Source: a virus (Duplodnaviria > Caudoviricetes). Taken from it: a stretch of DNA of 56,059 bases. Within the stretch, counting starts at the first letter, position 1; every line of letters begins with the position of its first letter. The DNA is taken from positions 1 through 56,059 of the IMG/VR virus record IMGVR_UViG_3300033004_000002. One strand, given 5' to 3'. The notes beneath the pieces were generated by a model. It was not told where the DNA came from, ran no database searches, and saw nothing but the letters and a program-made list of their open reading frames with translations. Of this stretch, positions 1-20,639 are shown piece by piece. A program made the position numbers and the translations under genes.

Positions 1-127
1 GACCTCATCCGACGAAAGCCGCGCCAGAAACCCTATCGCGTTCGTTGACCCGTCCCGCCGCAATCCAGGCGTCAACGGTTCATCGAATGGCCGCCGGGTG
101 AACCCGAGCTTCCGCTCGCCGTCGCGC
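1..127. repeat. 127-bp terminal direct repeat (copy 1), circular-assembly overlap
   Basis: Identical to 55933-56059. Confidence 0.97.
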
Positions 128-168
128 CGAACGGGGCGCTCGCTTGGATGACGTTCCTTGCGGTCCAT
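1..168 (-). CDS. Small hypothetical protein spanning the circular junction (MDRKERHPSERPVRRDGERKLGF...SSDEVED); stop at 55924-55926
   Basis: ATG at 168; frame is open through the repeat and ends in a TGATG overlap with the start of the 55541-55924 gene. Confidence 0.7.
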   Translation of the reverse strand, partial: MDRKERHPSERPVRRDGERKLGFTRRPFDEPLTPGLRRDGSTNAIGFLARLSSDEV

Positions 169-244
169 CCTACAGCCGCCTTTCCAGCGTTCCCGGAACA
201 ATCCAGATGCAATCGCTCAAACCAATGTGCGAACGGAAGTGAAA

Positions 245-412
245 TCACTCCGGAGAGACGTAGAACGGCTTCGTCCCGTAGTAGTGCACATAGTGGGGGT
301 ACGGCTCAGACATCAGATCGAAGAGAGCGGTATGGAAAGCTCTCGGAGGAGGCGTGTCGATAGCCCGCTTCAGATCCTTGAATCCGAGGGCGTTCAATGT
401 GCTCAGCGCCAT
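245..412 (-). CDS. Hypothetical protein (MALSTLNALG...), possibly extending to 170 past an internal TGA
   Basis: ATG overlaps the stop of the upstream gene; the frame reopens after the TGA until a TAG at 170-172. Confidence 0.5.
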   Translation of the reverse strand: MALSTLNALGFKDLKRAIDTPPPRAFHTALFDLMSEPYPHYVHYYGTKPFYVSPE

Positions 413-651
413 CAGTAGCCGCCCCCGAGATGCTTCGCTGCCGCCTTCGCCGAGATCGCCCCGCGCTTGATCGCGCGCTTGGCGCGGTCGCCGTCGACAT
501 GCTGTGGCAGCTTCTTCAGCTTCTTGCCCTTCGCGCCCTTGGCGAATTCTTTCCCGACCTTCTTCGGAATCCCAATGGTCGACTTGCCGGCAGCGGCTGC
601 ATGCATCGCCGCGTTTTGCGCCTTCGAGACCGGTTTCGGATAGGGAGGCAT
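412..651 (-). CDS. Small Lys/Ala-rich basic phage protein (MPPYPKPVSKAQNAAMHAAAAGKSTIGIPKKVGKEF...)
   Basis: GGAG upstream of ATG at 651; resembles small basic proteins often found near terminase genes; carries the shared C-terminal KRGxIS tag. Confidence 0.75.
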   Translation of the reverse strand: MPPYPKPVSKAQNAAMHAAAAGKSTIGIPKKVGKEFAKGAKGKKLKKLPQHVDGDRAKRAIKRGAISAKAAAKHLGGGY

Positions 652-716
652 TTCGTTCTCCACGCGACCGCGGAAGGTGACGGATTTGTTGTTGGCGGCG
701 GGCGCGGTCAGAGCCA

Positions 717-911
717 TCAGAACCCGCGCGCGACATGCCACGCCGCCTTGAATGAGGCCATCCGGCCAAATCCAAGTTGGCGGTAGTTCACATAACTATT
801 CCGAAACCGCTCACAGAACGGGCGAAGCCTCACGCGGATCATGCCGTCGGGGCGGCTCATCTCCCGTTCCACTGTCTCGCAATCATCGAGCAACTCGAAG
901 CGAAAGAACAT
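717..911 (-). CDS. Hypothetical protein
   Basis: ORF co-oriented with the operon; GAGGG upstream. Confidence 0.45.
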   Translation of the reverse strand: MFFRFELLDDCETVEREMSRPDGMIRVRLRPFCERFRNSYVNYRQLGFGRMASFKAAWHVARGF

Positions 912-927
912 GATGACGCCCTCAAAT

Positions 928-1068
928 AGGTGGCCGGCTTCTTCCGATTAGACGCGTTCTCTATGTCCGGAACGTTGCCGCTCCCCCTTCACACCCGCGT
1001 CCAAACATCGGAAGCGTGATCAGCTGCCCGCCGGCCTCGGGGCGCAGCCCAGGATGGGTGTGACGGGT
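928..1068 (-). ncRNA. Putative structured RNA element
   Basis: Nested stems 932-938/1030-1036, 941-948/1007-1014 and 949-956/996-1003; GCAA-tetraloop hairpin 969-984; extra pairing 989-996/1056-1063. Confidence 0.5.
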
Positions 1069-1072
1069 TAGT

Positions 1073-1315
1073 TCAGGTCTTCGGAGCCTTCGGAAACTCC
1101 ACGGGGCAGAACACGATGGCCATGTTTTGCGGTCTCACCCACCAAGAGTTGCCATCGAGATCGACCAGCAATGCTGGCTCCGTGATGATGGTCCCTGGAG
1201 GTAGCCTAGGCCTCGGAGCAGGCAGCGCCGTTGAACGCGCCGCCGCATCGTTCGCGCTTTGGCCGTGCTGGCGAAGGGAATTCATGTTTAGATCTTGACA
1301 GTATGCCATTCTCAA
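1073..1315 (-). CDS. Hypothetical protein
   Basis: Co-oriented ORF overlapping the upstream stop; start uncertain. Confidence 0.5.
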   Translation of the reverse strand: MRMAYCQDLNMNSLRQHGQSANDAAARSTALPAPRPRLPPGTIITEPALLVDLDGNSWWVRPQNMAIVFCPVEFPKAPKT

Positions 1316-1506
1316 ATCCCCCGCTTGGCGTAGATCTCCAGCCGCCGCCCCATCGCCTCACGAAACCGCGGCAGGAACGGCCAGGCCTTCCGCGCGATCG
1401 CCATGTGCTGCATGCCCTGCTCGATCGAGGTCGGCGGGAAGCCCTGCGCGTAGTGCCATTCGGCGAGCGACAGCTGCGTCGTGCATCCGAGCACTGCAAC
1501 CAGCAC
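1312..1506 (-). CDS. Small protein overlapping the 3' end of the O-antigen-ligase-like gene (VLVAVLGCTTQLSLAEWHYAQG...)
   Basis: Alternative frame has a hydrophobic start and helical, TPR-like composition. Confidence 0.5.
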   Translation of the reverse strand: MLVAVLGCTTQLSLAEWHYAQGFPPTSIEQGMQHMAIARKAWPFLPRFREAMGRRLEIYAKRGI

Positions 1507-2545
1507 AATGGCCCGCAAACAGCGCGCCAAGAACGACGGTGCCCGGGTCGTGGAAGGGCATGGCGAACAGCGAGAGGACGAAGAGAGCGGCGAAGACGCT
1601 GCGCTCGGGCCGTTCGTCAGCGGCAAACCAGAGCCCCAGCGAAAACAGCATGCCGAGGCCAAGGGCTGGAACGCCGCCTTCGAAGACGAGCCAGAGCCAT
1701 TCATTGTGGGGGTGCTCCGGTCGGCTTTGCCAGTGGTTGAAATCGAAGGTCTGCGCCAATGCAAGGAACACCTCGCGGAATGAGCCGAGGCCATGGCCGA
1801 AGACGGTGAGGCCCGAAATGGTGTCGCGCCAGATAGCGAGGCGTTCGCCATCGGAAGGCGCCAAACCGTGCAAAATGAGGTACGTCGGAATCGCCATCAC
1901 AAGGGACAGCCCTGCGTAAATCCGAAACGGCCGATAGAGACTCTCCGTTACGACCACTCCCGCACAGATCCCAAGCCATGCCGCCTTCGACGGCGCGAGC
2001 ACCAGGGACGGCAGCAGCAGCGGCAGCAATAGCCATACGCGAGGGAGGGCAACCAACCCCACGGCGACCACGGCCGCCGCTGCTGCCAGCCGATCGCGGT
2101 TGACGAACAGTCCGGGATAGCCGCCGTTGACGATCTCGACGCCCTGCCAGCCGAACCATTGCGCCACAGCGACCGCGCTGTTGATGCCGATGCCGAGTGC
2201 CGCCCCGATGATGAGACCGCTGAGGTCGGTCAACGTCGAGCCGACGGCGAAGGCGCACAGCACGACCAGCAGTTCAAAGCTCGCCTCGCCGCCGTCGAGC
2301 CTGCCGTCGGTGCCGCCATCGTTCCAGAGAATCGACAGAACCAGCCAGCCGATCAGCAAGAGGCCGACCCAGTGCGTCATGGTCATGCGCACGCGCGGGG
2401 CCATGAACAGCGCGAGGGCAAGCGAGGCGGCGACGATCCAGCGCGGCGTGGTAGCCGCGCCGGCGATGCCGGGCCAGTAGGCCGTCATTAGCGCGAAACC
2501 GAACAGACCAGCGAACAGATCAGAACGGCGGAAACCCTTCGGCAT
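1358..2545 (-). CDS. O-antigen ligase / O-oligosaccharyltransferase (Wzy_C, WaaL/PglL-like) membrane protein
   Basis: About 10-12 hydrophobic segments; G-L-F-x-N-R, S-K-A-A-W, R-L-x-I-W, G-H-G-L-G-S-F and H-P-H-N-E-W-L...E-G-G motifs typical of Wzy_C. Confidence 0.85.
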   Translation of the reverse strand: MPKGFRRSDLFAGLFGFALMTAYWPGIAGAATTPRWIVAASLALALFMAPRVRMTMTHWVGLLLIGWLVLSILWNDGGTDGRLDGGEASFELLVVLCAFAVGSTLTDLSGLIIGAALGIGINSAVAVAQWFGWQGVEIVNGGYPGLFVNRDRLAAAAAVVAVGLVALPRVWLLLPLLLPSLVLAPSKAAWLGICAGVVVTESLYRPFRIYAGLSLVMAIPTYLILHGLAPSDGERLAIWRDTISGLTVFGHGLGSFREVFLALAQTFDFNHWQSRPEHPHNEWLWLVFEGGVPALGLGMLFSLGLWFAADERPERSVFAALFVLSLFAMPFHDPGTVVLGALFAGHCAGCSARMHDAAVARRMALRAGLPADLDRAGHAAHGDRAEGLAVPAAVS

Positions 2546-2768
2546 CGAGCCTCTCGTTCAGCGTGTCGTCGGGATATTCGGAGTGGTCGCGCCATTCGTC
2601 GGGCTGGTCGGGATCGTCTTCGATCTCATCGTCTTCGTCTTCCGGATCGAGCGACTGCACCATCCTGACGACGCATCCACGATAGATCACGTCACCCTTT
2701 TGGTATGGTCCCCAGTTCTCGGTCACCAGCAGCGCATGCTCGCCGCCGAAGTCGATCGTGCGCATCAC
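2520..2768 (-). CDS. Hypothetical acidic protein
   Basis: Coupled by stop/start overlap. Confidence 0.65.
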   Translation of the reverse strand: MMRTIDFGGEHALLVTENWGPYQKGDVIYRGCVVRMVQSLDPEDEDDEIEDDPDQPDEWRDHSEYPDDTLNERLDAEGFPPF

Positions 2769-3028
2769 TGCGCGCCATGAACCGTTGCAATCAACTCGTT
2801 GGCGTCCGCCTGCATGTCCCTGGCGATCTTGCCGGCCTTCTGCTCTGCGGCGAGCAGCTGACCCGACAGCACCTCGCGGTCTTCGTGCGCTCCGATGCCG
2901 GCATCGAGCAGGGCCTTGAGGTCGGACATCATCACCGAGGTGACGGGCGCGTTGCTGTCCATCGCGTGCTGGAAGTCGGCCAGCAGTTCCTTGGCGCGGT
3001 CAGCGAAGGACGGGAGGGTATCTGCCAT
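2765..3028 (-). CDS. Hypothetical helical protein
   Basis: High GC3; GAGGG upstream. Confidence 0.7.
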   Translation of the reverse strand: MADTLPSFADRAKELLADFQHAMDSNAPVTSVMMSDLKALLDAGIGAHEDREVLSGQLLAAEQKAGKIARDMQADANELIATVHGAQ

Positions 3029-3031
3029 CGT

Positions 3032-3418
3032 TCAACCCTCGCCATCTTCCCCCAAAGGGACATTCGACAGCCGCTCGATCACCGCCACGGACTCGTCAAC
3101 ACCCTTGATGATGGCATCGTAATAGCTGTGATGCTTTTCGGCTGCGGCATCACGTTTTCGCTCGGCGACACCGATCTTCGCCGCGATGCCGTCGAGCACG
3201 GTTTCGGTCTTCTTGTGGAAGTCCTGTGCGCGCTCGGTCAATGCCGCCATCTTGCCGGTCAGGCTCATTCGTCGATCCCGTGCGATGGTGGTCAAAACGC
3301 GCGCCGCGACAAGACGGTCTGCGGCGCCATCGATGGCCTCCGCGCTGACGATCGCCACGTCCGCGCTGACAACCTCCTGTGCGATGCCGGTGTGATCGGT
3401 GGCGGGATCAGGCATCAC
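3032..3418 (-). CDS. Hypothetical coiled-coil protein
   Basis: GTGA overlap with the terL stop; an alternative start at 3268 is possible. Confidence 0.7.
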   Translation of the reverse strand: MMPDPATDHTGIAQEVVSADVAIVSAEAIDGAADRLVAARVLTTIARDRRMSLTGKMAALTERAQDFHKKTETVLDGIAAKIGVAERKRDAAAEKHHSYYDAIIKGVDESVAVIERLSNVPLGEDGEG

Positions 3419-5037
3419 ATCGTCACCGTCGAATACATCTCGCCGCCCCGTTCGTCCCGCGCCTCGCGGTAGCCGTCGCGGCGGACCGGTTCGTCCTTCG
3501 CCAGCGACTTGATCCAGGGCCGCGACAGGCAGGCGTAGCGCCAGTCGTCCGCCGCATGATCTTCCGCATCGGTGTCGAGATCCTCGGCGCGGCTCTGGTC
3601 GTGCTGCAGCACCGGGATGGTGCGGATCGAGTCGGTACAGGTCGAAAAGCAGTAGATCATCGGCCGTCCCGTCGACCAGTTGATCGAACCGTCGGTTTCG
3701 TTGCGCTGCGCCGATCCGATCAGCCGCGCCCGGAACATGTCCCAGCCGCCCATGGGCCCGGCCTTCTCGCGGTCGCCGGTCTGCCGCGTCACGCGCTTGT
3801 TGTCGGCGGCGATGAACGCGGCGAGCTTGGCCTTGAACAGTTCCTCGTTGATGCGCTCGGCGTTGGAGGGGCCGCCATCCTCGGTGAAAGCGGAAGGGTC
3901 CAGCACGCCGTAGGTCAGCTTGGCGAGGTCATCGCGCTCGCGCGACGCGATGCCCTTGCCGACTTCGTTCGCCGTCAGCTTTCCGCCGACGGCGCCGTAC
4001 CATTCGCGGTATCGGACCAAGGCGCCTCGGGGAAGCGTTTGCGTGCTTCTTCCCGCGTCATTGGACGAAACTGGAAGTGAAAGTCCGTCGGACTGTTGAA
4101 GAACTCCTCCTGCGGACCCGGGAAAGGCCTCCAACCTGAACTCGTCTCCGACGACCGCCCACCATCCGACACTGAACGGGCTGTAAGAACCCCAGTCACC
4201 GCTGCGAAAGCGCAGCCAATGCTCCGGAATAGCGAACGGCGTGACAACATGTTGCTCATTGCTCCATTCCGAGAAGAAGGCGCCTTCGATCGCGGTCCAG
4301 TCGCCTTCGAGCCAGGCCTTGACCAGCTGCGCGGTGCCGACCAGGTAGAGCCGCGAGCGGTAGCCCGGATCGCTCTGCAGCAGGATCTTGTTGTTTTCCA
4401 GCCGCGAGGGGATCACCGCCATCTTGTGCAGCGAACCGTCGGGCAGCTTGCGCGTCAGCACCTTCGGCCGGCGCGGGAACGGATGCAGATGGTAACGGTT
4501 GCGAAGCCAGTGCTGGCCGGCGCCGCCGGGGTTGGCGGTGAGGATCAACTGGACCGGCACGCCGTGGCTGGAGCGCAGCACGCCGAACAGCCGGTCGATC
4601 GGCGCCGAACTCGGATATTGCCCGGCTTCTTCCACCCATGCATCGGTGACGTTGCGACCCTGGTACTCGTTGGCGTCCTGCACGCTCTCCAGATACTTGA
4701 ACCGGACTTTGCCGCCGTTCGGCATGATCCAGCCCTTGTTCTCGATGTAGCGCCCACCTAGCGGGCCGTAGATTTCCTTCGACCGGTCGATCGCATCTTC
4801 CGCCGAGGTCGTGGTGCGGCGGAACATGATCGCGTTGAAGGCCGTGCCGTATCGCTTTTCCTTCAGCGCCCACTTGCCGAGCACGCCATCGGTCTTGCCG
4901 CCGCCGCGGGCGCCGCCGAAGAACACTTCCGGAAACGGACAGCAGCAGAGATCGTCCTGCGGGCCTTCCTGCGGCGACCAGGAGCGGTCCTGGTCATGGG
5001 CGACATGCGCGCTGGTCCGCGGCGCGACGACATTCAT
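3415..5037 (-). CDS. terL: Terminase large subunit
   Basis: W-x-P-Q-x-G-P-Q, Walker A GGARGGGKT, Walker B WVEEAG, LTANPGG, nuclease DWG and EDHAADDWRY. Confidence 0.95.
   Translation of the reverse strand: MNVVAPRTSAHVAHDQDRSWSPQEGPQDDLCCCPFPEVFFGGARGGGKTDGVLGKWALKEKRYGTAFNAIMFRRTTTSAEDAIDRSKEIYGPLGGRYIENKGWIMPNGGKVRFKYLESVQDANEYQGRNVTDAWVEEAGQYPSSAPIDRLFGVLRSSHGVPVQLILTANPGGAGQHWLRNRYHLHPFPRRPKVLTRKLPDGSLHKMAVIPSRLENNKILLQSDPGYRSRLYLVGTAQLVKAWLEGDWTAIEGAFFSEWSNEQHVVTPFAIPEHWLRFRSGDWGSYSPFSVGWWAVVGDEFRLEAFPGSAGGVLQQSDGLSLPVSSNDAGRSTQTLPRGALVRYREWYGAVGGKLTANEVGKGIASRERDDLAKLTYGVLDPSAFTEDGGPSNAERINEELFKAKLAAFIAADNKRVTRQTGDREKAGPMGGWDMFRARLIGSAQRNETDGSINWSTGRPMIYCFSTCTDSIRTIPVLQHDQSRAEDLDTDAEDHAADDWRYACLSRPWIKSLAKDEPVRRDGYREARDERGGEMYSTVTM
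3975..4259 (-). CDS. Overprinted ORF inside terL; twin-arginine-like N-terminus (MSNMLSRRSLFRSIGCAFAAV...)
   Basis: GGAG just upstream of ATG; terL third-position GC drops over this interval; terL has an apparent insertion here. Confidence 0.6.
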   Translation of the reverse strand: MSNMLSRRSLFRSIGCAFAAVTGVLTARSVSDGGRSSETSSGWRPFPGPQEEFFNSPTDFHFQFRPMTREEARKRFPEAPWSDTANGTAPSAES

Positions 5038-5046
5038 GCGAATCCG

Positions 5047-5310
5047 CTAATGCCGGCCGTGAAGACCATATCCCATCTGCACAGAGAAGCGCGGCACACC
5101 ATCGATGCAAAGATGCGTGATGCCGTTCTCCAGATCGATCAGCGAAAACCGCTCGATCTCAACACCGCACTCTCGGAACCGATGAATAGCGGCTTCGATC
5201 GCTTGGATTCGCGCCTCTCGCGCCTGGCGCACAAGGTCGACCGTCAGGCTATGAAAGACCTTTGAGTCAATGACCCCAGGCTCTTCATAAAATCTAGTCG
5301 GCACCTGCAC
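5047..5310 (-). CDS. Hypothetical protein between terS and terL
   Basis: GGAGG upstream; fills the gap. Confidence 0.6.
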   Translation of the reverse strand: MQVPTRFYEEPGVIDSKVFHSLTVDLVRQAREARIQAIEAAIHRFRECGVEIERFSLIDLENGITHLCIDGVPRFSVQMGYGLHGRH

Positions 5311-5743
5311 GCTGCGCCTCCCATTCGGATTCCGACATCGGCTTTTCCGAGATCAGGTAGACCGAGGCCGGGTTGTTGCCGGTGGGATCTGTCAGCGCGG
5401 TCTTGGTCACCGCCTTGAAGCCGTGCATGTCGCGGAGCTGGGCGAGCGCGCCAAGCCGATGCGGCCAATCCAGCACGACGCGGCGGCCGGGAAACTCCGA
5501 ACCATCGCCATAAGCGATTGCCGAAAGCGCCGTCTCGATCTGATCGCGCTTTTCACGAACCACGTCTTCGCTGGTCGCGACCAGTTCGGCGATGCGCGCC
5601 TGCACGGCTTTGTTGCGCTCAAGCTTGGTAGCAACGCCAGACGTCGGCTTAAGCCCGATCGCCTTCGCTGCCGCGCGCGGCGGAATCAAGATCGCGCGAA
5701 GACGCGAATACCGTTCGTGGTTCTCGTTGGTCAGGACTGGCAC
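5294..5743 (-). CDS. terS: Terminase small subunit
   Basis: Probable GTG start (MPVLTNENHERYS...), HTH followed by VQARIAEL; directly upstream of terL. Confidence 0.75.
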   Translation of the reverse strand: MPVLTNENHERYSRLRAILIPPRAAAKAIGLKPTSGVATKLERNKAVQARIAELVATSEDVVREKRDQIETALSAIAYGDGSEFPGRRVVLDWPHRLGALAQLRDMHGFKAVTKTALTDPTGNNPASVYLISEKPMSESEWEAQRAGAD

Positions 5744-5908
5744 AAGGTGATTCCAAAAGATTCCAACTTGTTCATGTTCCAAAAGATCGCCGCTCGCGCC
5801 GGGGAATGCCGGGATGGATGGACCGACACGAGCGGCAGTCAAAGGGAGGAAACGCCCTGAGAGGGCAGCGATAGCCGCAAGGTGACTACCGCATACCCTA
5901 TGCAAACG

Positions 5909-5937
5909 AAAAAGCCCGGCACTGAGGCCGGGCTCTT
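5909..5937 (-). terminator. Rho-independent terminator in the late leader
   Basis: AGCCCGGC/GCCGGGCT stem followed by a T-run on the minus strand. Confidence 0.8.
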
Positions 5938-5944
5938 GAAGATA

Positions 5945-5991
5945 TGGGGACAATGACCAGCGGAATTACATGGGACACCTGTCAGGTTATT
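5945..5991 (-). repeat. Bipartite site copy A (AATAACC-N26-GGTCATTGTCCCCA)
   Basis: Aligns with copies B-G. Confidence 0.9.
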
Positions 5992-6018
5992 GAGCGGTCT
6001 TTGCTCGGCTCTCTCCTT

Positions 6019-6052
6019 AAAAGAGAAAAGCCCGGCGCGAAGGCCGGGCTTT
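6019..6052 (-). terminator. Rho-independent terminator downstream of the NusG paralog
   Basis: AAAGCCCGGC-TTCG-type loop-GCCGGGCTTTT on the minus strand. Confidence 0.8.
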
Positions 6053-6211
6053 ATGCTTTGGAAGGCCGCCTATCCGCTGCAGCCGCTCCTCATTGCCGCG
6101 CCTGTCGGATAGCGCGCTCTGGGTATCTCAGGAATCGTTCTAATGGGCCAATCTCTTGGCCCTTCCGCCGGGCGCTTCGGCCCGTCTCCGCGTTGTCACG
6201 GGTGTAACCCG

Positions 6212-6790
6212 CTATACCGCTTCGATCTGGTCCTCATTCAAGTGCAGCAGGACCTGACGCGTCAATATCTCGATTAGAATGGTGATTCGGTAGCGCGGGT
6301 CAAGCCGCTCAATGCGACCTTCCCACATGTCGAACGGGCCGCCGATCAAGCGCACCTTCTGGTCGACCCTGAATTTGCGCTCCTCGGGCAGTCCGTTGCG
6401 CCTGGCTTCGAACCTGCGAACGTCTGCCATGACGCTGAGCGAGATTTTCAGTGCTTCCGGGCCTTGCTTGCCGCAGTATTTAACGAAGCCTCCGATGCCA
6501 TCCGCCGCATCCTTGAGCCTAGCGATATCGGCGTCGAAGTCCGGAATAAACATCGCGCCGGGAAAGATCGGGACCGTCCTCGACAAGCGACGGTTCCATG
6601 CACCCTTGATCGTCCGTTTTTCCTTCGGCACATAGGCCGAGATGCCGTGCTGATGCAGCTGCCGCTCGGCCTTCAGGTCATAGTTCGGATGCAGCCGCAG
6701 CAGGTACCACAGTTTCGGCAGCGGTGTTGCGATAACAGGCCCTTGGACGCACGCGACAAAATCCCTGGTTTCGTAAAGCGCTGCTGTCAT
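6212..6790 (-). CDS. NusG/RfaH-family transcription antiterminator
   Basis: NGN motifs (WYLL...P, PIFPG-MF) and KOW motif (F-x-x-D-Q-K-V-R-L-I-G-G-P-F); sits upstream of terminators and the late genes. Confidence 0.9.
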   Translation of the reverse strand: MTAALYETRDFVACVQGPVIATPLPKLWYLLRLHPNYDLKAERQLHQHGISAYVPKEKRTIKGAWNRRLSRTVPIFPGAMFIPDFDADIARLKDAADGIGGFVKYCGKQGPEALKISLSVMADVRRFEARRNGLPEERKFRVDQKVRLIGGPFDMWEGRIERLDPRYRITILIEILTRQVLLHLNEDQIEAV

Positions 6791-6811
6791 CTGTGGTGCT
6801 CCCTGATTGGT

Positions 6812-7972
6812 TCATTTGAAATCCGCCAGATCATCATCGGTTGCCAGCGCTTGCGGCGGGCCGGTGGTCGACAGTGTTCCATCCTTCCGGGGTGGCCATG
6901 GCCACGGCGCGCGCGAGCCTTCGCGCAGGCGTTGGCGGACCTGCAGGGTCAGATGCTCGCTGAGGAAGCTTTCCCAGGCCGCGGCCTGGTTGCGAGCCAG
7001 CGTCGCCCACTCCGCAACAGCCGGTGCCTGTGCGAGCGCCGCGAGCCGCGGCGTCATGGGAAGTTGATAGTAGACCCGGTCGCCCTTGCGGACGACACTG
7101 CGGAAGAAATCGCCCGCGCCAACGATGTCGTACAGCACAGAGACCGCGCGACCTTCGGGGCTGGCGGTCGGATAGCCGGACATTTTGGCCTCAACGGAGA
7201 CCTGCTCCAGCAGCGTCCAGCGCTTTTCCTTGAGATATTTCCATCCGGCAGGAACCGTGGTGCGCTTGTCGCGTTTCAGCTTTCCAAGAAATGCCGGGAT
7301 GCCGCCCAGCGCTGCCTCGCCCTCGTCGAATTCGAGCACGTACCACGCATCGTCGATCTTGGTTTGATCGTCGCTTGCCGCCGTCGGCCAGCGCCGCTTG
7401 AACTCGGCCAGATTGAGGGCGTGCTTTTCTCGCGCTCGCGCAAGTTCTCTCTCAGAATTTTGGTAAGATTCGTCCCTTGGTTCTTCCGTATTTGGTCCTT
7501 CTATATAGGCCACCCCTGCCTCACCACCCCTCTGGTCAACCACTACTGGCTGGGAGGGGGGTGGATCGTCTGGAATGGAGGGTGGTTCATCCGCCTCATC
7601 ATAGCCGCGCACAATGCCGTCGGGATCGACCTCGCTGGACACCAGCGACAAAGCCATCCTGATCTCGTCATCGCTCAGCTCTTTGCCGGGCAGATCGGAA
7701 ATATCGTAGAGAATGCAGAACGTTCCGTTGGGAAGGCGGATCTTGGTCGCCTGACACCAGCCGGCCGCCATCCACTTGTTCATGATGCGCTTCATGGTTC
7801 CGGGGCCGATGCTCCAGCGGCGCATCAGCGCGGAGCGGCGGATTTCCCAGTCGTGGGGACGTGACAACAGATAGGCCAGGATACCGACCTCGTCGGCGGC
7901 AAGGCGCATGTCATCGAACAGCGTGTTGCTGATCGTCGTAAAATTCTTGGTATGTCGACGGCGGATGATCAT
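6812..7972 (-). CDS. Replication initiator (N-terminal wHTH)
   Basis: NFTTISN...LAYLLSRPHDW wHTH, low-complexity linker, C-terminal FKRRWP...W..L...YL.EKRW domain. Confidence 0.75.
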   Translation of the reverse strand: MIIRRRHTKNFTTISNTLFDDMRLAADEVGILAYLLSRPHDWEIRRSALMRRWSIGPGTMKRIMNKWMAAGWCQATKIRLPNGTFCILYDISDLPGKELSDDEIRMALSLVSSEVDPDGIVRGYDEADEPPSIPDDPPPSQPVVVDQRGGEAGVAYIEGPNTEEPRDESYQNSERELARAREKHALNLAEFKRRWPTAASDDQTKIDDAWYVLEFDEGEAALGGIPAFLGKLKRDKRTTVPAGWKYLKEKRWTLLEQVSVEAKMSGYPTASPEGRAVSVLYDIVGAGDFFRSVVRKGDRVYYQLPMTPRLAALAQAPAVAEWATLARNQAAAWESFLSEHLTLQVRQRLREGSRAPWPWPPRKDGTLSTTGPPQALATDDDLADFK

Positions 7973-8184
7973 CTATTTTCTGGTTTCTTCTTGTTCGCAG
8001 GCCATAGCCCAAACCTGCATCTGTAGGCCTGCTGGCACGACCGTGCCGCGCAGATGATGGTGTCCGGGTTGAAGCACGGCTTCTCGAAATGCGGGCCGAA
8101 GCGGCGCCGGTCGAAGGGGACGAGGTGTTGGTCTTCCTCGGTCCATTCGAGGGGTGGTGTGGTGGGCGGCGGATGGGTGGTCAC
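7969..8184 (-). CDS. Hypothetical protein
   Basis: Coupled overlaps; GAGGAG upstream. Confidence 0.6.
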   Translation of the reverse strand: MTTHPPPTTPPLEWTEEDQHLVPFDRRRFGPHFEKPCFNPDTIICAARSCQQAYRCRFGLWPANKKKPENR

Positions 8185-8315
8185 TCCTCGGTCTCCCGGA
8201 TCGCGTCAGCGAGCGCTTCAAGCCCGCCCTTGAGGTCGTTACCGAGGCCCTCGATTCCGTAGGCAATGAACCAGCCAGCGACAGCCATCCCGATGCCGAT
8301 AAACAGCCCGTTCAT
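8181..8315 (-). CDS. Small membrane protein (MNGLFIGIGMAVAG...)
   Basis: ATGA overlap; one TM segment. Confidence 0.55.
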   Translation of the reverse strand: MNGLFIGIGMAVAGWFIAYGIEGLGNDLKGGLEALADAIRETEE

Positions 8316-8584
8316 GCCACCGCTCCCGCCGCCACGCCCGTGCACCTGATCGGCCAGCGCGACTGCGTCACAGCCCCCTTCTCGCGCCACTCGCGCCAGG
8401 CGTCGCCCTTCGGCGGGATCACGGTCACACGGGTGGCGCCGCAGGTGAGGCAGGTCTTTTCGTGCTGCTCGCAGCCGGTGACGGAGGCCTCCGGCTTGAC
8501 GATTTGTTCCTCGCCGAACAGGTGCTCCGGCGCGCGTGGCTGCGGCAGGTGCACGACGTAGCCCTCGGGCAGCGGCGTGCTCAA
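8312..8584 (-). CDS. Hypothetical Cys-containing protein
   Basis: Probable TTG start overlapping the upstream TGA; CxxC motif. Confidence 0.55.
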   Translation of the reverse strand: MSTPLPEGYVVHLPQPRAPEHLFGEEQIVKPEASVTGCEQHEKTCLTCGATRVTVIPPKGDAWREWREKGAVTQSRWPIRCTGVAAGAVA

Positions 8585-11959: not shown

Positions 11960-12159
11960 GCTGTCACCCCATCCGGTTCACACACAGGCGTCCCCTTCCC
12001 CTCGCCCCTCTCCCCGTCCCGCCAGAACTCCACCCCATGCACGCGGCCCTCGCGTCCAAACGGATGCAGCGTGACCTTGATGGTGCGGCAGCCGCGCAGG
12101 CATTCGCGCTCGGTCTTGTGCACCATGCGATTGCCGAGCTTGGGCCAACGATGGTTCAT
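11956..12159 (-). CDS. Hypothetical protein
   Basis: ATGA coupling on both sides. Confidence 0.6.
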   Translation of the reverse strand: MNHRWPKLGNRMVHKTERECLRGCRTIKVTLHPFGREGRVHGVEFWRDGERGEGKGTPVCEPDGVTA

Positions 12160-13292
12160 GGGCGGCGCTCCGGCATCGCGTTGTGTTCGACGTCGTCGAG
12201 CAGGCGGCCGGCGCGGGCCTTGCCGACGCGCTCGACGAACGCCGCACCGGCCTCCGGGTAAAGCTCATCGGCCCGCGCGACATGCGGATAAGCCTTGATC
12301 GCCTGCCACCCAGAACGCGGATTTCCCTTGGCCTGCTCCGGCGTCGACGGCGCCCATTCGCCCCATTGCTTGAAGAAGAAGGGCACGCCGGCAGCCTGGC
12401 ACTGGTCGCGCAGCGATCGGTCCCAATCGACATGCATCGGCCGCGCCCTCGGGCCGCTCTCGCCGCCGACGATCACCCAGTCGAGGCGCGGGCCGCAGTT
12501 CGTGGACCAAACGGAATGACTCCCGGTGCCGTCTGCCCGGCGATGTGACCAAGTCCCATCCTCATGAAGATGTTCACGCCGATCACTCCCAGTGAGAACG
12601 TTATATCTCTCCCGAACTGTTTTCCGGTCTGGTACGAAGCCTCGCATTGCCCAGGGAATCGCCGTCAAGTCGATCGGCCCCAGCAGCGGCTCGCCGCTGA
12701 TGAACCGCACCGCTGCTGGCGTCTGCAGCAGCAGCGGAATCCGTTCGTCGGCCTCCTGCTGCCGCTCGGCAGATACACCGAGCCAGACGTTCGGCAGCGG
12801 CCAATTCACTTGCCAGTCGCCGCCATGGTTGATCTTGCTGCCTTCGGGCGTGCCCAGCATTGACCAGATATGGCCGTTGATCGTGTGACGGCTCGTCCTG
12901 ACGCAATAATCCCGCATCCTTCGCGCCCGCTTCGTCAGCACCTGAAACGTATGCTGCGGGCACAACGCCATCACCGCGAAGACGCGATCGATCCATGCAT
13001 CGGGACAATCCTCGTGGAACAGGTCGCTCATCGAGTTGACAAAATACGTGGTCGGTTTCTTCCGCTTCAGCGGCTGCAGCAGCGTTGCTTCCGGTGCCTG
13101 CACCAGCTTTCCGGTCCACAACGCGTTGCCGTTGACGACGCGAGTGGTGCCGTCATAGCGGGAGATGCCCATGGCCTCGTTGCGGGCTGCAGTCTTCATG
13201 GCATAGCAGTTGGTGCAGCCGGGGGGGACGATGGAGCAGCCGACGATGGGATTCCAGACGTGTGACGTCCATTCGATCGAGGTTTTGCTCAT
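12156..13292 (-). CDS. DUF5131 / phage Gp37-Gp68 family (radical-SAM-like)
   Basis: IEWT...WNP-GC-x4-GC-NCYA, FVNSMSDLFH, LTKR, WVIVGGESG, PFFFKQWG. Confidence 0.92.
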   Translation of the reverse strand: MSKTSIEWTSHVWNPIVGCSIVPPGCTNCYAMKTAARNEAMGISRYDGTTRVVNGNALWTGKLVQAPEATLLQPLKRKKPTTYFVNSMSDLFHEDCPDAWIDRVFAVMALCPQHTFQVLTKRARRMRDYCVRTSRHTINGHIWSMLGTPEGSKINHGGDWQVNWPLPNVWLGVSAERQQEADERIPLLLQTPAAVRFISGEPLLGPIDLTAIPWAMRGFVPDRKTVRERYNVLTGSDRREHLHEDGTWSHRRADGTGSHSVWSTNCGPRLDWVIVGGESGPRARPMHVDWDRSLRDQCQAAGVPFFFKQWGEWAPSTPEQAKGNPRSGWQAIKAYPHVARADELYPEAGAAFVERVGKARAGRLLDDVEHNAMPERRP

Positions 13293-13471
13293 GTCGGCAC
13301 CCCGCAATCCGGACACCCATGCAGCCACACCTCGGCAATCTTGCGGACGTGCCAGCCCTCGCGCTTCATCATCGCGCGGGCCTCGTCGAAATCCCTGGTC
13401 CTGGTGTCAAGGACTTCATCGCAGCTGTCGCATTCGATGTGGATGATGCCGCCTTGCTGTCGATCGATCAT
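13289..13471 (-). CDS. Small Zn-finger protein (CDSC...CPDC)
   Basis: Two CxxC motifs; coupled. Confidence 0.7.
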   Translation of the reverse strand: MIDRQQGGIIHIECDSCDEVLDTRTRDFDEARAMMKREGWHVRKIAEVWLHGCPDCGVPT

Positions 13472-13755
13472 CAGATGTACCCCTTGACGATCCATCCGAT
13501 TGCAACGGCTATAAGAGGAACAAGCAGCGGATAGGTGATCGCGTCCCATGTCTCATCATCCTTCTGTGGAATCTGCTGATGGCAGAGCAGAGAGACAACG
13601 AGCGAAACCGCAGTCGCCTGCGCGATCGATAGCGGCGGCGCATGGAAAATCGGCACCATGAACCATGACCAGAGCACGCTCAGAGCCCAGCCACGCAAGA
13701 GCGTCAAACCACCGATGACGGCGCCAACTATAACGGCTGATATGATGACGATCAT
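13471..13755 (-). CDS. Small membrane protein
   Basis: Several hydrophobic segments. Confidence 0.7.
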   Translation of the reverse strand: MIVIISAVIVGAVIGGLTLLRGWALSVLWSWFMVPIFHAPPLSIAQATAVSLVVSLLCHQQIPQKDDETWDAITYPLLVPLIAVAIGWIVKGYI

Positions 13756-14205
13756 CTAGAAGTCACCTTCAGCAACTTGCGCACACGGCACCCCCGCCGC
13801 CCGCCAAGCCTTAACCACCCGCGATCGATCATCAAAAACAACCACCGGCTCAAAGCCGTCGGCGCGGACCTGTTCGAGCAGAACGATCTTCAGCACGTCG
13901 TCGTCGCGATGATCGCCGTCCGGGCGCATGTAGAGCCGCAGCGGATAGCGACCGGTATAGGCGCCGTGATCGGACAGCCATTGCGCGGTCTTCTCCCTGC
14001 AGCGCTCCGCGCGGCCCGATACGAAGACGGTCACCAGCTCGCGATCGAGGGCGCGCAGCACGCGGATCATGTGCGGGATCGGCTTGTCGTCGTGACAGAG
14101 ATCGAAATAGGCATCCCATTGCTTGGGTGTCTGTTGAATCAGGTGCAGGCGGTGATCGCCGTTGGCGAGGGTACCGTCGATGTCGAAGATCACGCAGGGT
14201 TTCAT
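13756..14205 (-). CDS. HAD phosphatase (T4 PNK 3'-phosphatase-like)
   Basis: IFDIDGTLA, VSGR, MRP..D.R.D..K, FDDR..VV..WR, QVA-GDF. Confidence 0.9.
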   Translation of the reverse strand: MKPCVIFDIDGTLANGDHRLHLIQQTPKQWDAYFDLCHDDKPIPHMIRVLRALDRELVTVFVSGRAERCREKTAQWLSDHGAYTGRYPLRLYMRPDGDHRDDDVLKIVLLEQVRADGFEPVVVFDDRSRVVKAWRAAGVPCAQVAEGDF

Positions 14206-14207: not shown

Positions 14208-14483
14208 TTAGATATTCCGATCCGATCCGCAAAGCATCCGCGCGCGGCGCCAGAATTCATCAGCGCTGACGCGAAAGTTCAGATTGATGTCGTTGTTGTC
14301 GATGGTCACGGTGCCGTCGTCATTGCAGATGATGGCGCCGCGATGGGCGCGCGACGCGTTATCTGCTGCGGCCCACAGAGCTATGAGCGCCGACCCGACA
14401 ATAACGACGATCGCAGCCTGTCTCACAGTCCGTTTGGTGCGGATGATTTCCCATTTCAGCCGGTCCTGCTCGAGCCAGGTCAT
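14208..14483 (-). CDS. Hypothetical membrane-anchored protein
   Basis: One TM segment; coupled. Confidence 0.6.
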   Translation of the reverse strand: MTWLEQDRLKWEIIRTKRTVRQAAIVVIVGSALIALWAAADNASRAHRGAIICNDDGTVTIDNNDINLNFRVSADEFWRRARMLCGSDRNI

Positions 14484-14906: not shown

Positions 14907-15298
14907 GCCGCTTCGCCCTCCTGCTCATCCTCTTCAAAAGGGAAGTCGTCATCATCCCCATCGCCCGAGACCATATCGTCAGGTGTACCCGGCTTCGGTA
15001 GCGTCAGCCGTGACGGCGGCTCCCACGGTTTGTTGCGCGCGAGCACGGTTTCCTCATCGGTCAGGGCGTAGGAGAAGATCGCGGCACCAGAATAGTAGTG
15101 CGTCGTCCAGCCGTGCGCGGCCGGGTCGCCCTTGATCGGCACATCGATGCGCAGCATCTTGGCGCCGAAGCGTTCCTCTTCGCGGGCGCGGCCCCAATGG
15201 CTGCGATGGCCCATGATCTCGACCAGCATCCATTCCCAGCCGGGTTCGGTTGCCGTGGGTTGTGGTTGGGTGATCTGCTCTTGTGCTTCGTTCGTCAT
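14903..15298 (-). CDS. Conserved phage hypothetical protein
   Basis: W-LVEIMGH...GR.REEE.FG.KMLRIDVP pattern; GAGG RBS. Confidence 0.75.
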   Translation of the reverse strand: MTNEAQEQITQPQPTATEPGWEWMLVEIMGHRSHWGRAREEERFGAKMLRIDVPIKGDPAAHGWTTHYYSGAAIFSYALTDEETVLARNKPWEPPSRLTLPKPGTPDDMVSGDGDDDDFPFEEDEQEGEAA

Positions 15299-16878
15299 GC
15301 CGCCTCATCCTCGTTTGAAACGTGCGGAGGCGCGGACTGTGTCCCTACGTCTGAGCCGGCTGCCCCAACCAAGGGCTCCCCCGTCTCGCGTTCGCATAGC
15401 GTGCTGGGGGCCTCGCGAGCCGTACCAGACGCCTCCTCTCTGGGTAATTCTGAACCAGGTGCTTCATTCCCCCACGCATCCCAGCCCGGCCGCGCGCGAC
15501 GCGCGTTCAATTCGATCTTGGGAAGGTTCGGGAAGTGAAATTCCGCATGCTCATATTGCTGGTCCGGCTTCTCGCTATGCTCGCCGACAGGCGCTTCGAA
15601 CAGGCTGCGGAAATGCGCGGTTGCCGGCGGCACGACGTTGCCGCGCACGCAGATCAGGAGAATCTCGTGCTCGCCGGTCACCCAGTAACCGGGGCCACGG
15701 CCGGCGCCGTTGCGCAGCTTGGCCCAGACACGTTGGGTTACATATTTGAAGCCGCGCAGCTCGATGACCCGATGGGCGATGGCCTCGTGGGGGATCGTGG
15801 TCCACATGTAGAGCACACAGTCGTCAGCCAGGCATTTGAAGCGCTCGGCGGTCCGAGCGACGATTTCTTCCGGCGTGTGGGCATCGGCCGCCGTCGGGTA
15901 ATGATTGGAGGGATGCCGGTCCATTCCGGACTCGCGAGACCAGGGTTGATGGTCCCATTCGAAATCCTCGATGGCGACGCCGTAGGTCTTCTCGGACATG
16001 CTCTGCAGCTTGCGGCCGAGATCGGCCTCGCGATCATTGCGGCGCTCTTTCTTCGCGGCCTGTTTTTCGGCGCGGATTTCCTTGATGACGGGGGCCAGCG
16101 CTTTCTTGGCCTCCGGCGTCAGCTTTCCGGTCTCGTCGCGCGGAAGCGCCGCGAGAATGGCTTCCTGTTCTTCAGCTGGCCGGCGGGCGATCTCCTCCGC
16201 GGCCGACGCCACGATCTGACCATCGCGGACCGCTTCGTTCAGTTGCTCGGTACCATGATCGCGGACCACGGCAGCGCTCGCGATCAGGCGCGCGGACACA
16301 TGCCCGCGTTCCGCGAGATCGGCGCGCGTCGACGGGGTTGGTGTTTCGGCTGGAATATCAAGATGCAAATTTGCATCTTGCTGCTGTGGTTGCCGCGGTC
16401 CGCCCCAGCGATATTGCTCATAGGAGGCCATCGCATGCGCCCGCTGCGAGGCCTCGAGGTGCCGCCGGAAGATGTTCTTGCTGATGACGTAGTCGAGCGC
16501 CTCGTCATTGGTGCCGGTGAACTGCTCGCACAGAACCGCCAGATTTCTCTTCCTGCAGGCGCGGTAGCGGTTGCGGCCGTCGAGGATCATGTCCTTATGG
16601 ATGATGACCGGATCGCGTTGGCCGTTGGCCGCAATGTCAGCGGCGAGTTCATTCAGCTCGGTTTCGGACAGCAGCGGGAACAGGCCCGCGAAAGGATGGT
16701 CCTTCAGGCGTTCGTGGCCCGCTTCGAGCGAATAGACCTGATTCACCATCTCCCCCACCCTCGGCACCGCCACGCAGGCCTTGCAGGCCGACGCCTTGCC
16801 GTCCGGCTTGCGCTGGTCGGTCTTGAAATCGTCGAGCGGCTTGGCCTGGTGGCAGCGGCTGCAGGTTTTGGTGGTCAC
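15295..16878 (-). CDS. ParB-like domain + MT-A70-family adenine methyltransferase, N-terminal Zn finger
   Basis: CxxC pairs; HP.A.LFP...ILDGRNR..AC ParB-like block; HY-T, LYMWT, GF-Y..W-K, E.LL...RG, HS-KP, IEL-AR...GWD-WGNE. Confidence 0.88.
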   Translation of the reverse strand: MTTKTCSRCHQAKPLDDFKTDQRKPDGKASACKACVAVPRVGEMVNQVYSLEAGHERLKDHPFAGLFPLLSETELNELAADIAANGQRDPVIIHKDMILDGRNRYRACRKRNLAVLCEQFTGTNDEALDYVISKNIFRRHLEASQRAHAMASYEQYRWGGPRQPQQQDANLHLDIPAETPTPSTRADLAERGHVSARLIASAAVVRDHGTEQLNEAVRDGQIVASAAEEIARRPAEEQEAILAALPRDETGKLTPEAKKALAPVIKEIRAEKQAAKKERRNDREADLGRKLQSMSEKTYGVAIEDFEWDHQPWSRESGMDRHPSNHYPTAADAHTPEEIVARTAERFKCLADDCVLYMWTTIPHEAIAHRVIELRGFKYVTQRVWAKLRNGAGRGPGYWVTGEHEILLICVRGNVVPPATAHFRSLFEAPVGEHSEKPDQQYEHAEFHFPNLPKIELNARRARPGWDAWGNEAPGSELPREEASGTAREAPSTLCERETGEPLVGAAGSDVGTQSAPPHVSNEDEAA

Positions 16879-17102
16879 ACCCGCCCCCGCATCTGCTTGA
16901 TCTTCGCCCTCACCACCTTCGGCCACAGCACGATCATCACCGCGATGGCGAGCGCGACGAAGCCGCCCGGCGGCAGCCGGCCGAAGCGGGCGCAGTAGCG
17001 CGACAGCGCGAAATCGATGTAGGCGGATGGTTCGCACAGCATCCAGACCAGCGCCCCGATCAGGAGATAGACGAGCAGCCATGCAACGGGATCGAGCAAC
17101 AT
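16875..17102 (-). CDS. Small membrane protein
   Basis: Two TM segments; GGGAG upstream. Confidence 0.65.
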   Translation of the reverse strand: MLLDPVAWLLVYLLIGALVWMLCEPSAYIDFALSRYCARFGRLPPGGFVALAIAVMIVLWPKVVRAKIKQMRGRV

Positions 17103-17233
17103 GCGAAACACTCCCGGAAATCGAGACAAAGAGGCTCACGCGTTGCGATGATGCGACGCGCGGGCAGGCGTTGGGACTTTGGGTTGACGCAAACGGAACG
17201 CGGGTGATGCTTTACGCGTAGGAAAACGAAGGT

Positions 17234-17568: not shown

Positions 17569-17643
17569 TGGCTGGGAAGGCAGGATTCGAACCTGCGACA
17601 AGGCGGTTAACAGCCACCCGCTCTACCTCTGAGCTACATCCCA
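17569..17643 (-). tRNA. trnN: tRNA-Asn (GTT)
   Basis: Cloverleaf TGGGATG/CTTCCCA (one mismatch), D arm GCTC/GAGC, anticodon loop CT-GTT-AA, T loop TTCGAAT, discriminator G, encoded CCA. Confidence 0.95.
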
Positions 17644-20394: not shown

Positions 20395-20639
20395 TGGCCA
20401 TCGGCAACTGCGACTGCTGCGACCGCACCAACGTCCCCGGTTCTGTCGTCAACTGCCCGGGTGAACCCTTCGCCTGCTTCATCTGCCAGGGCGACGACGA
20501 CGCTGACCCCTACGGCGAGCGGGAAATCGATTGCACGGACTGTGACGGCGAAGGCTGCGACGCCTGCAGCGGCTGCGGCACGGTCTGGATTGAGACCGCG
20601 CCGGTCACCCTGGCCGACTTAGAGGAGATGCCCGCGTGA
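20394..20639 (+). CDS. Cys-rich acidic Zn-finger protein
   Basis: Multiple CxxC motifs including DnaJ-like CxxCxGxG. Confidence 0.7.
   Translation: MAIGNCDCCDRTNVPGSVVNCPGEPFACFICQGDDDADPYGEREIDCTDCDGEGCDACSGCGTVWIETAPVTLADLEEMPA

Follow-up and report, generated by a model that had tools for sequence, protein, structure and literature searches.

Enzymes of the Wzy_C superfamily work at the periplasmic face of the inner membrane, where they pass a glycan already assembled on undecaprenyl-pyrophosphate to an acceptor, and folding and assembly of tailed-phage parts are regarded as cytoplasmic. Among the closest described systems, the ligase WaaL of E. coli exhibits conserved arginine and histidine residues in its periplasmic loop (R215, R288 and H338), and 21 of 31 pglL homologues adjoin a pilin substrate gene in the same orientation, with PilO described as lacking the PglL motifs (both points from excerpts of PMC3643930). 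The phage Wzy_C genes of D3, phi297 and VarioGold have been read as seroconversion genes: according to the excerpted parts of PMC9658991, they lie near integrase or lysis genes and opposite to the late genes, are moron-like and are presumed to be active in lysogens, and the neighbours of the VarioGold gene VG_p25 encode proteins with signal peptides or transmembrane segments. Here, we compare with these systems a gene, LIG, from a tailed phage represented by the IMG/VR virus record IMGVR_UViG_3300033004_000002; the window analysed is this complete record of 56,059 bp, for which the listed sequencing runs are all wetland, freshwater and sediment metagenome DNA. As judged from sequence and a predicted structure, LIG encodes a functional-looking transferase of the WaaL/Wzy_C fold, and it lies within the late operon of a phage whose virion module also encodes proteins predicted to be exported.

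1358–2545, minus strand: LIG, a membrane enzyme of the WaaL/Wzy_C fold, 395 amino acids (aa), assigned through PF04932, AlphaFold2 (AF2)/Foldseek and hidden Markov model (HMM) comparison with the PDB

Residues 176–296 of LIG match the Pfam family Wzy_C (PF04932) with an E-value of 1.3e-6 and 28.7 bits, just below the gathering score of 31.7, and the precomputed Pfam assignments of the protein database place PF04932 on LIG and on most of its 102 homologue clusters, which a database search with LIG had returned at E 1e-191 to 1e-14. When the AF2 model of LIG, built on a 25-member alignment (predicted local distance difference test score (pLDDT) 81, predicted template modelling score (pTM) 0.83), was compared with the PDB using Foldseek, the sole match at E ≤ 1e-3 was WaaL (7tpg_B; E 2.8e-6, template modelling (TM) score 0.58/0.57), with the SEDS proteins FtsW and RodA next in rank. 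A profile search of PDB sequences also placed 7tpg first (E 0.01), and the HMM alignment of the two proteins pairs sRaA with TRGA, GhGLGSF with GVGVGQF and EhpHne with EHAHND. The motif HPHNEWL...EGG is present in LIG; within the 25-member alignment R35, W36, G250, G252, G254, S255, H280, G291, H332 and P334 are invariant, R187, R235, R275, H251 and E289 are found in at least 90% of the members, and the loop between the motif-bearing helices of the model is short (approximately residues 245–281). Because the Pfam match, the WaaL fold match and the aligned Arg, Gly-rich and His motifs agree, LIG is, on sequence and model, a real member of the WaaL/Wzy_C superfamily, and the first-pass annotation of this DNA, which had named a Wzy_C-type membrane enzyme on the basis of the HPHNEWL...EGG motif, is borne out on this point by Pfam, by the match to 7tpg_B and by the conserved motifs. 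That annotation had also called for comparison with WaaL and PglL: the WaaL half of this comparison holds through the fold match to 7tpg_B, and for the PglL half the PglL_A motif (as defined in PMC3643930) was not detected in the Pfam scan at E ≤ 0.1. LIG is accordingly placed at the level of the Wzy_C superfamily only, above the subgroups of WaaL proper, PglL, TfpO and Wzy.

The LIG family itself is sizeable. At E ≤ 1e-30, an exhaustive profile search of a library without genomic context gave 1071 representatives of clusters formed at 50% identity. Of the 103 family representatives listed by the database search with LIG, the window's own among them, 21 have a longest contig between 46 and 72 kb, the size of a phage genome. 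LIG showed no match to a PHROGs family, tblastn against 50,697 phage records returned nothing at E ≤ 1e-5, and a pattern scan of GTDB representative genomes, itself insensitive, returned three distant cellular matches, all partial and of 26–36% identity, in metagenome-assembled genomes of Omnitrophota and Planctomycetota.

The position of LIG is best described together with the following features of the window:

1–127, no strand: direct terminal repeat of 127 bp, identical to 55933–56059
5294–5953, minus strand: terminase small subunit (terS), first gene of the late operon (phrog_11494, E 1e-10)
3415–5037, minus strand: terminase large subunit (terL; phrog_979, E 3.4e-25; Terminase_3)
2520–2768, minus strand: acidic 82-aa open reading frame (ORF) that shares its last 26 nt with the beginning of LIG; its homologues precede LIG in the related loci L005 and L008
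51660–53660, minus strand: portal protein (phrog_156, E 1e-86)
28702–30399, plus strand: large serine recombinase (integrase), 565 aa (Resolvase, Recombinase and Zn_ribbon_recom, all above gathering score)

The 127-bp terminal repeat implies a circular map of 55,932 bp, and on this map LIG lies between terL and the portal gene. A long late operon on the minus strand begins with terS and reaches the tail genes down to approximately 33600: terS and terL are followed by three small ORFs, LIG and further small ORFs up to the record junction, past which the operon continues with an ORF resembling S-adenosylmethionine (AdoMet) decarboxylase, a 445-aa protein, the portal gene, scaffold-like and capsid genes, a head-closure/nozzle-like gene and the tail genes. 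LIG begins 26 nt before the end of the upstream 82-aa ORF, with GAGAGG ahead of its ATG, and the start MPK(G/A/S) is kept in homologues; downstream, the 446-nt stretch 912–1357 is without a convincing ORF, the 80-aa ORF at 1073–1315 (minus strand) having a modest GC content at third codon positions (GC3). Sequence scans, which are weak evidence, detected no sigma-70-like promoter site in 1–7000 and no terminator-like site on the minus strand between 5692 and 1. The genes of the exported proteins are packed equally tightly, with the portal stop overlapping the start of SP296 and SP296 overlapping SP152, and a terminator scan of 33000–52999 gave 18 sites against 14.7 ± 3.9 in shuffled sequence, none of them strong and together nothing beyond chance. 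The scans thus give, as weak evidence, no sign that LIG or the exported-protein genes form separate transcription units. LIG is the only glycan-related gene of the phage and lies approximately 26 kb from the integrase gene; the large serine recombinase indicates that the phage is temperate. The 26-nt overlap and the position on the circular map confirm what had been proposed at first pass, namely that the ligase is coupled within the terL-to-portal part of the late operon and does not stand as an independent moron: LIG is translationally coupled into the late operon and is not a separate moron cassette.

The second component of the system is a set of proteins from the virion module with N-terminal signal peptides (a slash marks the predicted cleavage site), given here with the major capsid protein (MCP) gene that serves as a landmark:

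47505–48668, minus strand: major capsid protein (phrog_334, E 9e-75; 33% identity to the Pam1 MCP)
50773–51663, minus strand: SP296, predicted exported, 27% serine plus threonine (S+T), 4 Cys; signal peptide ...AFSARA/QS; start overlaps the portal stop
50333–50791, minus strand: SP152, predicted exported, small and beta-rich, with 2 conserved Cys and a signal peptide; directly upstream of LIG in the related locus L030
46901–47413, minus strand: SP170, predicted exported jelly-roll (AF2 model) encoded immediately after the MCP gene; signal peptide ...AAFA/LN
37771–38856, minus strand: SP361, predicted exported tail-protein homologue; the probable start is an internal Met near 38775, with a signal peptide from there
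36090–36494, minus strand: SP134, predicted exported, no family; signal peptide ...MPALA/DV
35667–36038, minus strand: SP123, predicted exported, with an Ala/Lys/Pro-rich tail; signal peptide ...APASA/TP
33604–35619, minus strand: SP671, predicted exported and tail-fibre-like, 26% S+T, 8 Cys; signal peptide ...EPALA/QV

Signal peptides were called using our own heuristic, not SignalP, and the calls are supported by conservation and by an AF2 model. All seven virion-module ORFs exhibit a positively charged n-region, a hydrophobic run of 10–17 residues and an AXA-like site; the S+T content of the mature parts spans 11–27%, and the Cys counts of the mature parts are all even (4, 2, 2, 2, 2, 2 and 8), with Cys columns kept within the exported families and several cytoplasmic virion proteins having zero Cys. 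As controls, the heuristic flagged none of the 15 coding sequences of the Pam1 head/tail module and two of 23 in phage CBW1004C-Prop1, both of them lysis-cassette proteins. Outside the virion module of the window it flagged two small proteins with a single transmembrane segment (8181–8390 and 14208–14483); a plus-strand ORF at 35063–35545 was also flagged and was taken as spurious, as it is antisense to the SP671 gene. Among relatives, 17 of 19 SP170-type, 11 of 14 SP152-type and 19 of 24 SP296-type proteins were flagged, most of the unflagged ones being ORFs whose longest reading begins far upstream, and the families retain a signal peptide even as its residues diverge. This conservation despite drift, the even numbers of conserved Cys and the detached N-terminal helix in the SP170 model argue for true Sec export, and the seven virion-module proteins are therefore predicted to be Sec-exported: the earlier count of at least seven virion-module genes with cleavable-looking signal peptides stands, with exactly seven found by heuristic, conservation and AF2 model. 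As judged from the sequences of the relatives, the whole phage clade is predicted to export structural-module proteins.

Considered one by one, the exported proteins have different degrees of similarity to known virion components. SP361 matches the tail protein family phrog_8763 (E 7.7e-41) over residues 52–360, i.e. past the signal peptide, and SP671 matches the tail fiber family phrog_11393 (E 1.1e-7) over residues 427–671. The AF2 model of SP170 is a jelly-roll (pLDDT 73.6) in which a helix at the N-terminus (residues 4–26) stands detached and is joined to the folded domain by a linker of low confidence. By TM score, it is most similar in the PDB to the phage cement or capsid-decoration chains 7dn2_1, 7dou_4, 7eel_H and 8h89_J, with TM scores by target of 0.47–0.64 and marginal Foldseek E-values (1e-3 to 6e-3), and plant and picornavirus coat proteins are matched with similar E-values at lower TM scores. 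Comparison with the predicted viral structures of BFVD gave 63 matches at E ≤ 1e-3, the top ones being Caudovirales proteins of 128–150 aa that include a 'structural protein' of KPP25. Furthermore, the SP170 gene occupies the position of the cement protein in Pam1, where the annotated cement gene follows the capsid gene. Sequence comparison of SP170 with the cement proteins of Pam1 and Pam5 was not significant (BLASTP E 1.0 for Pam1; hhalign E 0.26), and neither was BLASTP of SP152 against the Pam1 cement protein nor hhalign of the SP152 and SP296 families against the Pam1 and Pam5 cement proteins. By fold, with marginal matches, and by gene position, SP170 is probably a cement-like jelly-roll.

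For SP152, SP296, SP134 and SP123, no family was found in searches of Pfam, PHROG and NCBIfam, and SP134 had no match of any kind in these three. In the ESM Atlas, SP152 and SP170 fall into unnamed, mostly viral clusters, with a weak structural lead from SP152 to a XepA-domain cluster. The tail of SP123 is an Ala/Lys/Pro-rich stretch of low complexity with scattered Ser and Thr residues and a weak TolA-like match (E 0.013), which is a lead only; regions of this kind have been described as O-glycosylated in Neisseria substrates. A further variant occurs in the ligase-bearing relative G011, where an exported protein of 863 aa (G011:C1:13324-15915, minus strand) ends in an SP152-like domain and resembles SP296 at its N-terminus, and this fusion indicates that small exported domains are shuffled into larger exported proteins. 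The window also encodes a 263-aa protein without signal peptide (42848–43639, minus strand) that ends in a Peptidase_S74 intramolecular-chaperone domain (E 9.8e-12) and has PHROG matches to tail fibre, DNA-ejection and structural proteins; as a candidate cytoplasmic fibre or needle, it means that the exported fibre-like proteins are not the only candidate fibres of the phage.

A scan of IMG/VR identified 47 loci with a LIG relative. In every locus with recognisable late genes of the window type, LIG lies on the late-gene strand and within the head module, at one of several positions: between terL and portal in L005–L014 and L022; between portal and the scaffold/capsid genes, directly after an SP152 homologue, in L030 and also L040 and L043; and directly after capsid and SP170 genes in L016 and L019. 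Other backbones have LIG after terL (phrog_38) and a portal-sized ORF, or a few genes after capsid proteins of phrog_212 and phrog_21712, so that at least three unrelated capsid-protein families are found near LIG. Neighbour distances were counted in 39 loci (eight were dropped, as the GC3 filter had not called their LIG ORF): no more than two genes away from LIG, 30 of 143 ORFs carry an export flag, compared with 39 of 510 elsewhere in the same loci, which corresponds to an odds ratio of 3.2. Immediate neighbours were counted in 49 LIG-bearing loci, with two contigs represented twice, and here an exported ORF is next to LIG upstream in 15 of 42 cases, downstream in 8 of 37 and on either side in 21 of 49; after removal by hand of five duplicate or near-identical contigs, these values became 14 of 37, 7 of 33 and 19 of 44. 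The gaps between LIG and the exported gene are often 0–12 nt, or the genes overlap. This recurrence of LIG in the head module, with an enrichment of exported neighbours across related contigs, backs the late-operon interpretation given at first pass. By BLAST, the exported neighbours divide into at least five families. We considered that all of them might be one divergent cement-like family and rejected this: hhalign among ten exported-protein groups, with signal peptides removed, gave no link, no pair reaching 30% probability. A search for relatives of the SP200 family added one new locus only, with a distant homologue on a 6-kb contig without LIG. None of the 149 neighbour proteins from 44 loci matches glycosyltransferase, flippase, acyltransferase or lipopolysaccharide (LPS) families; the families that were matched are capsid, terminase, scaffold, NusG, DNA methylase and AdoMet_dc.

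The reading that we favour, plausible though short of probable, is that LIG O-glycosylates exported phage proteins, the acceptor being what we infer. LIG would be made from the late transcript together with the Sec-exported proteins, and would serve the phage as a protein O-oligosaccharyltransferase comparable to TfpO, PglS and PglL with their adjacent substrate genes, and not as a lipid A-core ligase. The donor would be a host-made glycan linked to undecaprenyl-pyrophosphate: with no other glycan gene in the phage or among the 149 neighbours, any donor must be host-made. As acceptors, the Sec-exported, Cys-paired and S/T-rich phage proteins of the same late transcript would be the most likely. 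We favour protein O-glycosylation because the enzyme and its candidate acceptors share a transcript, because the pairing with exported genes resembles the pairs of O-oligosaccharyltransferase and substrate formed by pglL and pilO (as far as these are covered by the excerpted source), because LPS genes are not nearby and because a single genome scan, albeit an insensitive one, revealed no close cellular relatives.

Against this reading stands a considerable body of evidence, beginning with the enzyme and its surroundings. Position 187, an Arg in at least 90% of the 25 aligned members, is Lys in the LIG of the window; LIG has no NCBIfam match and no match to PglL_A (PF15864) in the Pfam scan at E ≤ 0.1; and the genes that immediately flank LIG in the window are not exported-protein genes. 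The loci are related to one another, so that the p-values of the enrichment overstate independence, and the spread of exported neighbours over at least five families without a profile–profile link means that there is no single conserved acceptor. The terL–portal interval is moreover an accessory slot of variable content, occupied in relatives by a DNA methylase or other ORFs. Ligase-less relatives provide a further comparison, for which a portal-based scan gave 55 loci, none with LIG apart from LIG contigs that were already known, and the whole records of ten portal relatives were searched with the LIG profile (completeness being the records' own estimates). The profile matched five of five LIG-bearing records as a positive control and none of the ten portal relatives, six of which are at least 90% complete, which makes LIG an accessory gene. 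SP170-type homologues with signal peptides persist in each of the six near-complete genomes that lack the ligase, and most of these genomes also retain SP296-type homologues with signal peptides. The ligase-less sibling G002, with a capsid protein 87% and a portal protein 65% identical to those of the window, keeps signal peptides on its SP296, SP170 and SP361 homologues, as do the ligase-bearing relatives G011 and G012. The reverse case occurs in the ligase-bearing L019, whose SP361 homologue (19563–20543) begins at the conserved domain and has no signal peptide, while in the window, G002, G011 and G012 the predicted SP361-type cleavage site falls just before the conserved AGT-PLSLVQQ start; as the same tail-protein domain exists with and without signal peptide, this has been gained, or lost, within the phage group. 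The SP152 family was found in three of five LIG-bearing records and in none of five near-complete records without LIG (Fisher p 0.17), but also in five of five ligase-less fragments (21–61% complete), one of which spans all three LIG slots. The expectation at first pass that ligase and signal peptides would co-occur across related phages thus fails in one direction, with six near-complete ligase-less genomes keeping their signal peptides: carriage of the ligase is optional, and none of the exported families requires it. Since the exported proteins exist with or without ligase, glycosylation would be an optional add-on to clade-wide export.

These same data raise the possibility that LIG and the exported proteins are unrelated cargo brought together by chance at permissive insertion points of the head operon, i.e. 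after terL, after portal and after the capsid gene. Such co-location would account for the persistence of the exported proteins without LIG, for the unrelated sequence families of the exported neighbours and for the presence of a DNA methylase, an AdoMet decarboxylase-like gene and other unrelated ORFs in the same slots. We consider it unlikely: exported upstream neighbours occur in 14–15 of 37–42 cases against a background of approximately 8%, the genes are closely spaced or overlap, at least five exported families take part in the pairing, which is found on several backbones, and the conserved catalytic-type residues in a family of 1071 representatives indicate an enzyme under selection.

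A second explanation takes the enzyme to be functional and changes its acceptor: LIG might act like WaaL or Wzy on host glycolipids, ligating or polymerising a host glycan linked to undecaprenyl-pyrophosphate onto lipid A-core or a growing chain, and thereby remodel the envelope. An altered or masked receptor would lead to superinfection exclusion or would protect progeny from debris, late in infection or, through an unrecognised internal promoter, in lysogens. The best structural match of LIG is a bona fide O-antigen ligase and LIG lacks the PglL_A motif, both as expected for an enzyme of this kind; the phage is temperate, with a serine integrase, which also counts against protein O-glycosylation, and the location of LIG in a variable slot and its presence or absence among siblings with MCPs up to 87% identical are typical of strain-specific fitness genes. 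Moreover, the known phage Wzy_C genes of D3, phi297 and VarioGold are read as seroconversion genes in the excerpted parts of PMC9658991. Contrary to the D3 and VarioGold genes, LIG runs in the direction of the late genes and is coupled to them, far from the integrase and without a cassette of its own; it has no tblastn match in the 50,697 phage records, among which D3-type phages are assumed to be present, it is found in head modules of unrelated backbones too, and none of its 149 neighbours is an LPS or glycan gene. The three distant GTDB matches, from a scan that is insensitive, also argue against recent capture from host LPS loci. Taking both sides together, we hold envelope remodelling to be possible, if somewhat doubtful, and only slightly less likely than protein O-glycosylation.

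Returning to O-glycosylation of exported proteins, the proposal can be extended to the virion, although incorporation of the exported proteins into virions is a proposition of its own, and a weaker one than their glycosylation. Sec-exported cement-like and fibre-like proteins would gain disulfides and, in the ligase-bearing subset, host glycans, and would join cytoplasmic capsids and tails at lysis; this model, a subset of the glycosylation reading, appears improbable to us. The interpretation offered in the first-pass annotation as a whole therefore survives in part: enzyme identity, operon coupling and conserved signal peptides on virion-type proteins hold, but co-occurrence of ligase and signal peptides does not. 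Together, the ligase and the secreted proteins hint at phage parts that are finished or sugar-coated outside the cytoplasm.

Regulation of the late operon, and thus of LIG, may be approached through two features located upstream of terS:

6212–6790, minus strand: NusG-like protein, candidate late antiterminator (Pfam NusG, E 7.2e-8, above gathering score)
6027–6052, minus strand: strong terminator-like hairpin of 10 pairs followed by a T-run, just upstream of terS

The hairpin is the sole strong one on the minus strand in 1–7000. Together with the NusG-like gene just upstream of terS, its position suggests that the late genes are transcribed by antitermination, and the pair looks like a phage-encoded switch of this kind for the late operon that is based on a NusG paralogue. 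NusG-like ORFs are also found upstream of terS in the relatives L100, L059 and L014, and account for three of the 149 LIG neighbours. Within the terL–portal interval of the circular map, the AdoMet-decarboxylase-like ORF (55541–55924, minus strand) matches PF02675 with E 1.8e-5, at the gathering score, and overlaps the start of the gene for the conserved 445-aa protein (54207–55544, minus strand); the latter has a weak match of the purD/ATP-grasp type, is 56–73% identical in three sibling genomes and lies between terL and portal in most relatives, its longest ORF (577 aa) over-extending the 5' end. The early region encodes a DUF5131 protein (12156–13328, minus strand; E 1.6e-93), a 614-aa MT-A70 methyltransferase fusion (15295–17139, minus strand) and two tRNA genes, Phe-GAA and Asn-GTT (13714–13807 and 17569–17643, both minus strand). 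The relative G003 is classified as a provirus, and a member of the LIG family is located on a 429-kb contig.

A Wzy_C gene in the head operon of many uncultured phages is an arrangement unlike that of the known lysogenic seroconversion cassettes, and the placement of LIG beside exported proteins points to a late-phase role facing the periplasm. More surprising, and independent of the ligase, is the occurrence of homologues of cement and tail proteins with conserved Sec signal peptides and paired Cys residues across the clade. Such exported homologues would either join particles only after lysis or be redeployed to the envelope, e.g. for exclusion or adhesion, and either would be new biology. 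If the full model is true, the virions would carry decorations that are matured in the periplasm and coated with glycans; if LIG is a compact O-oligosaccharyltransferase with loose acceptor needs, a use for glycoconjugates is possible.

Compared with known systems, LIG resembles the WaaL of Cupriavidus metallidurans (7TPG) in its multi-helix membrane fold, its length of approximately 400 aa and its Arg, GxGxG and H-x-H-N-type motifs, but differs in its location in a phage head operon instead of an LPS locus, its short motif loop and its marginal sequence similarity (E 0.01). The context of an LPS core/O-antigen locus was not found for LIG, which lies in a phage head operon with no LPS or glycan gene among 149 neighbours. 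With regard to the Arg and His residues of the WaaL loop, motif alignment to 7tpg was used for comparison: H280 is invariant and R235 and R275 are present in at least 90% of the LIG homologues, and the window's copy has Lys at position 187. PglL of Neisseria, PilO/TfpO of Pseudomonas and PglS of Acinetobacter belong to the same Wzy_C superfamily as LIG, and the arrangement of pglL and pilO beside a co-oriented gene for an exported acceptor, as far as the excerpts describe it, resembles that of LIG in part: an exported candidate acceptor lies on either side of LIG in 21 of 49 loci, but not in the window itself. The candidate acceptors are S/T-rich. LIG differs from these O-oligosaccharyltransferases in lacking PglL_A and in its neighbours, which are not type IV pilins but Sec-type (signal peptidase I-like) proteins of several unrelated families. 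It is also much shorter than PglL. With Wzy-beta of D3, phi297 and VG_p25 of VarioGold, as these are described in the excerpted source, LIG shares the character of a Wzy_C membrane enzyme of a temperate phage; it lies instead inside the head operon, approximately 26 kb from the integrase, and has no tblastn match in the 50,697 phage records. Term-based literature searches, which are unable to prove absence, returned no report of a head-operon Wzy_C enzyme in tailed phages, nor of Sec signal peptides on homologues of cement or tail-fibre proteins.

As for the exported proteins, SP170 shares its fold class (TM scores by target of 0.61–0.64, root mean square deviations of 3.5–3.8 Å) with the cement proteins of Pam1 (gp6; 7EEL), KHP30 (7DN2), KHP40 (7DOU) and GP4 (8H89), which are phages of Pseudanabaena (Pam1), Helicobacter (KHP30 and KHP40) and Ralstonia (GP4). 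The cement proteins of Pam1 and Pam5 have no signal-peptide N-terminus, whereas SP170 and 17 of its 19 relatives do, and about half of the SP170-type relatives have conserved Cys pairs. The primary study of virion glycosylation in mycobacteriophages is reportedly that of Freeman and colleagues. In these phages, according to the abstract of PMC11256854, phage enzymes have been proposed or shown to add sugars to capsid and tail proteins. The mycobacteriophage glycosyltransferases are soluble and cytoplasmic and act before or during assembly, whereas LIG would be a periplasm-facing transferase of lipid-linked glycans with exported candidate acceptors.

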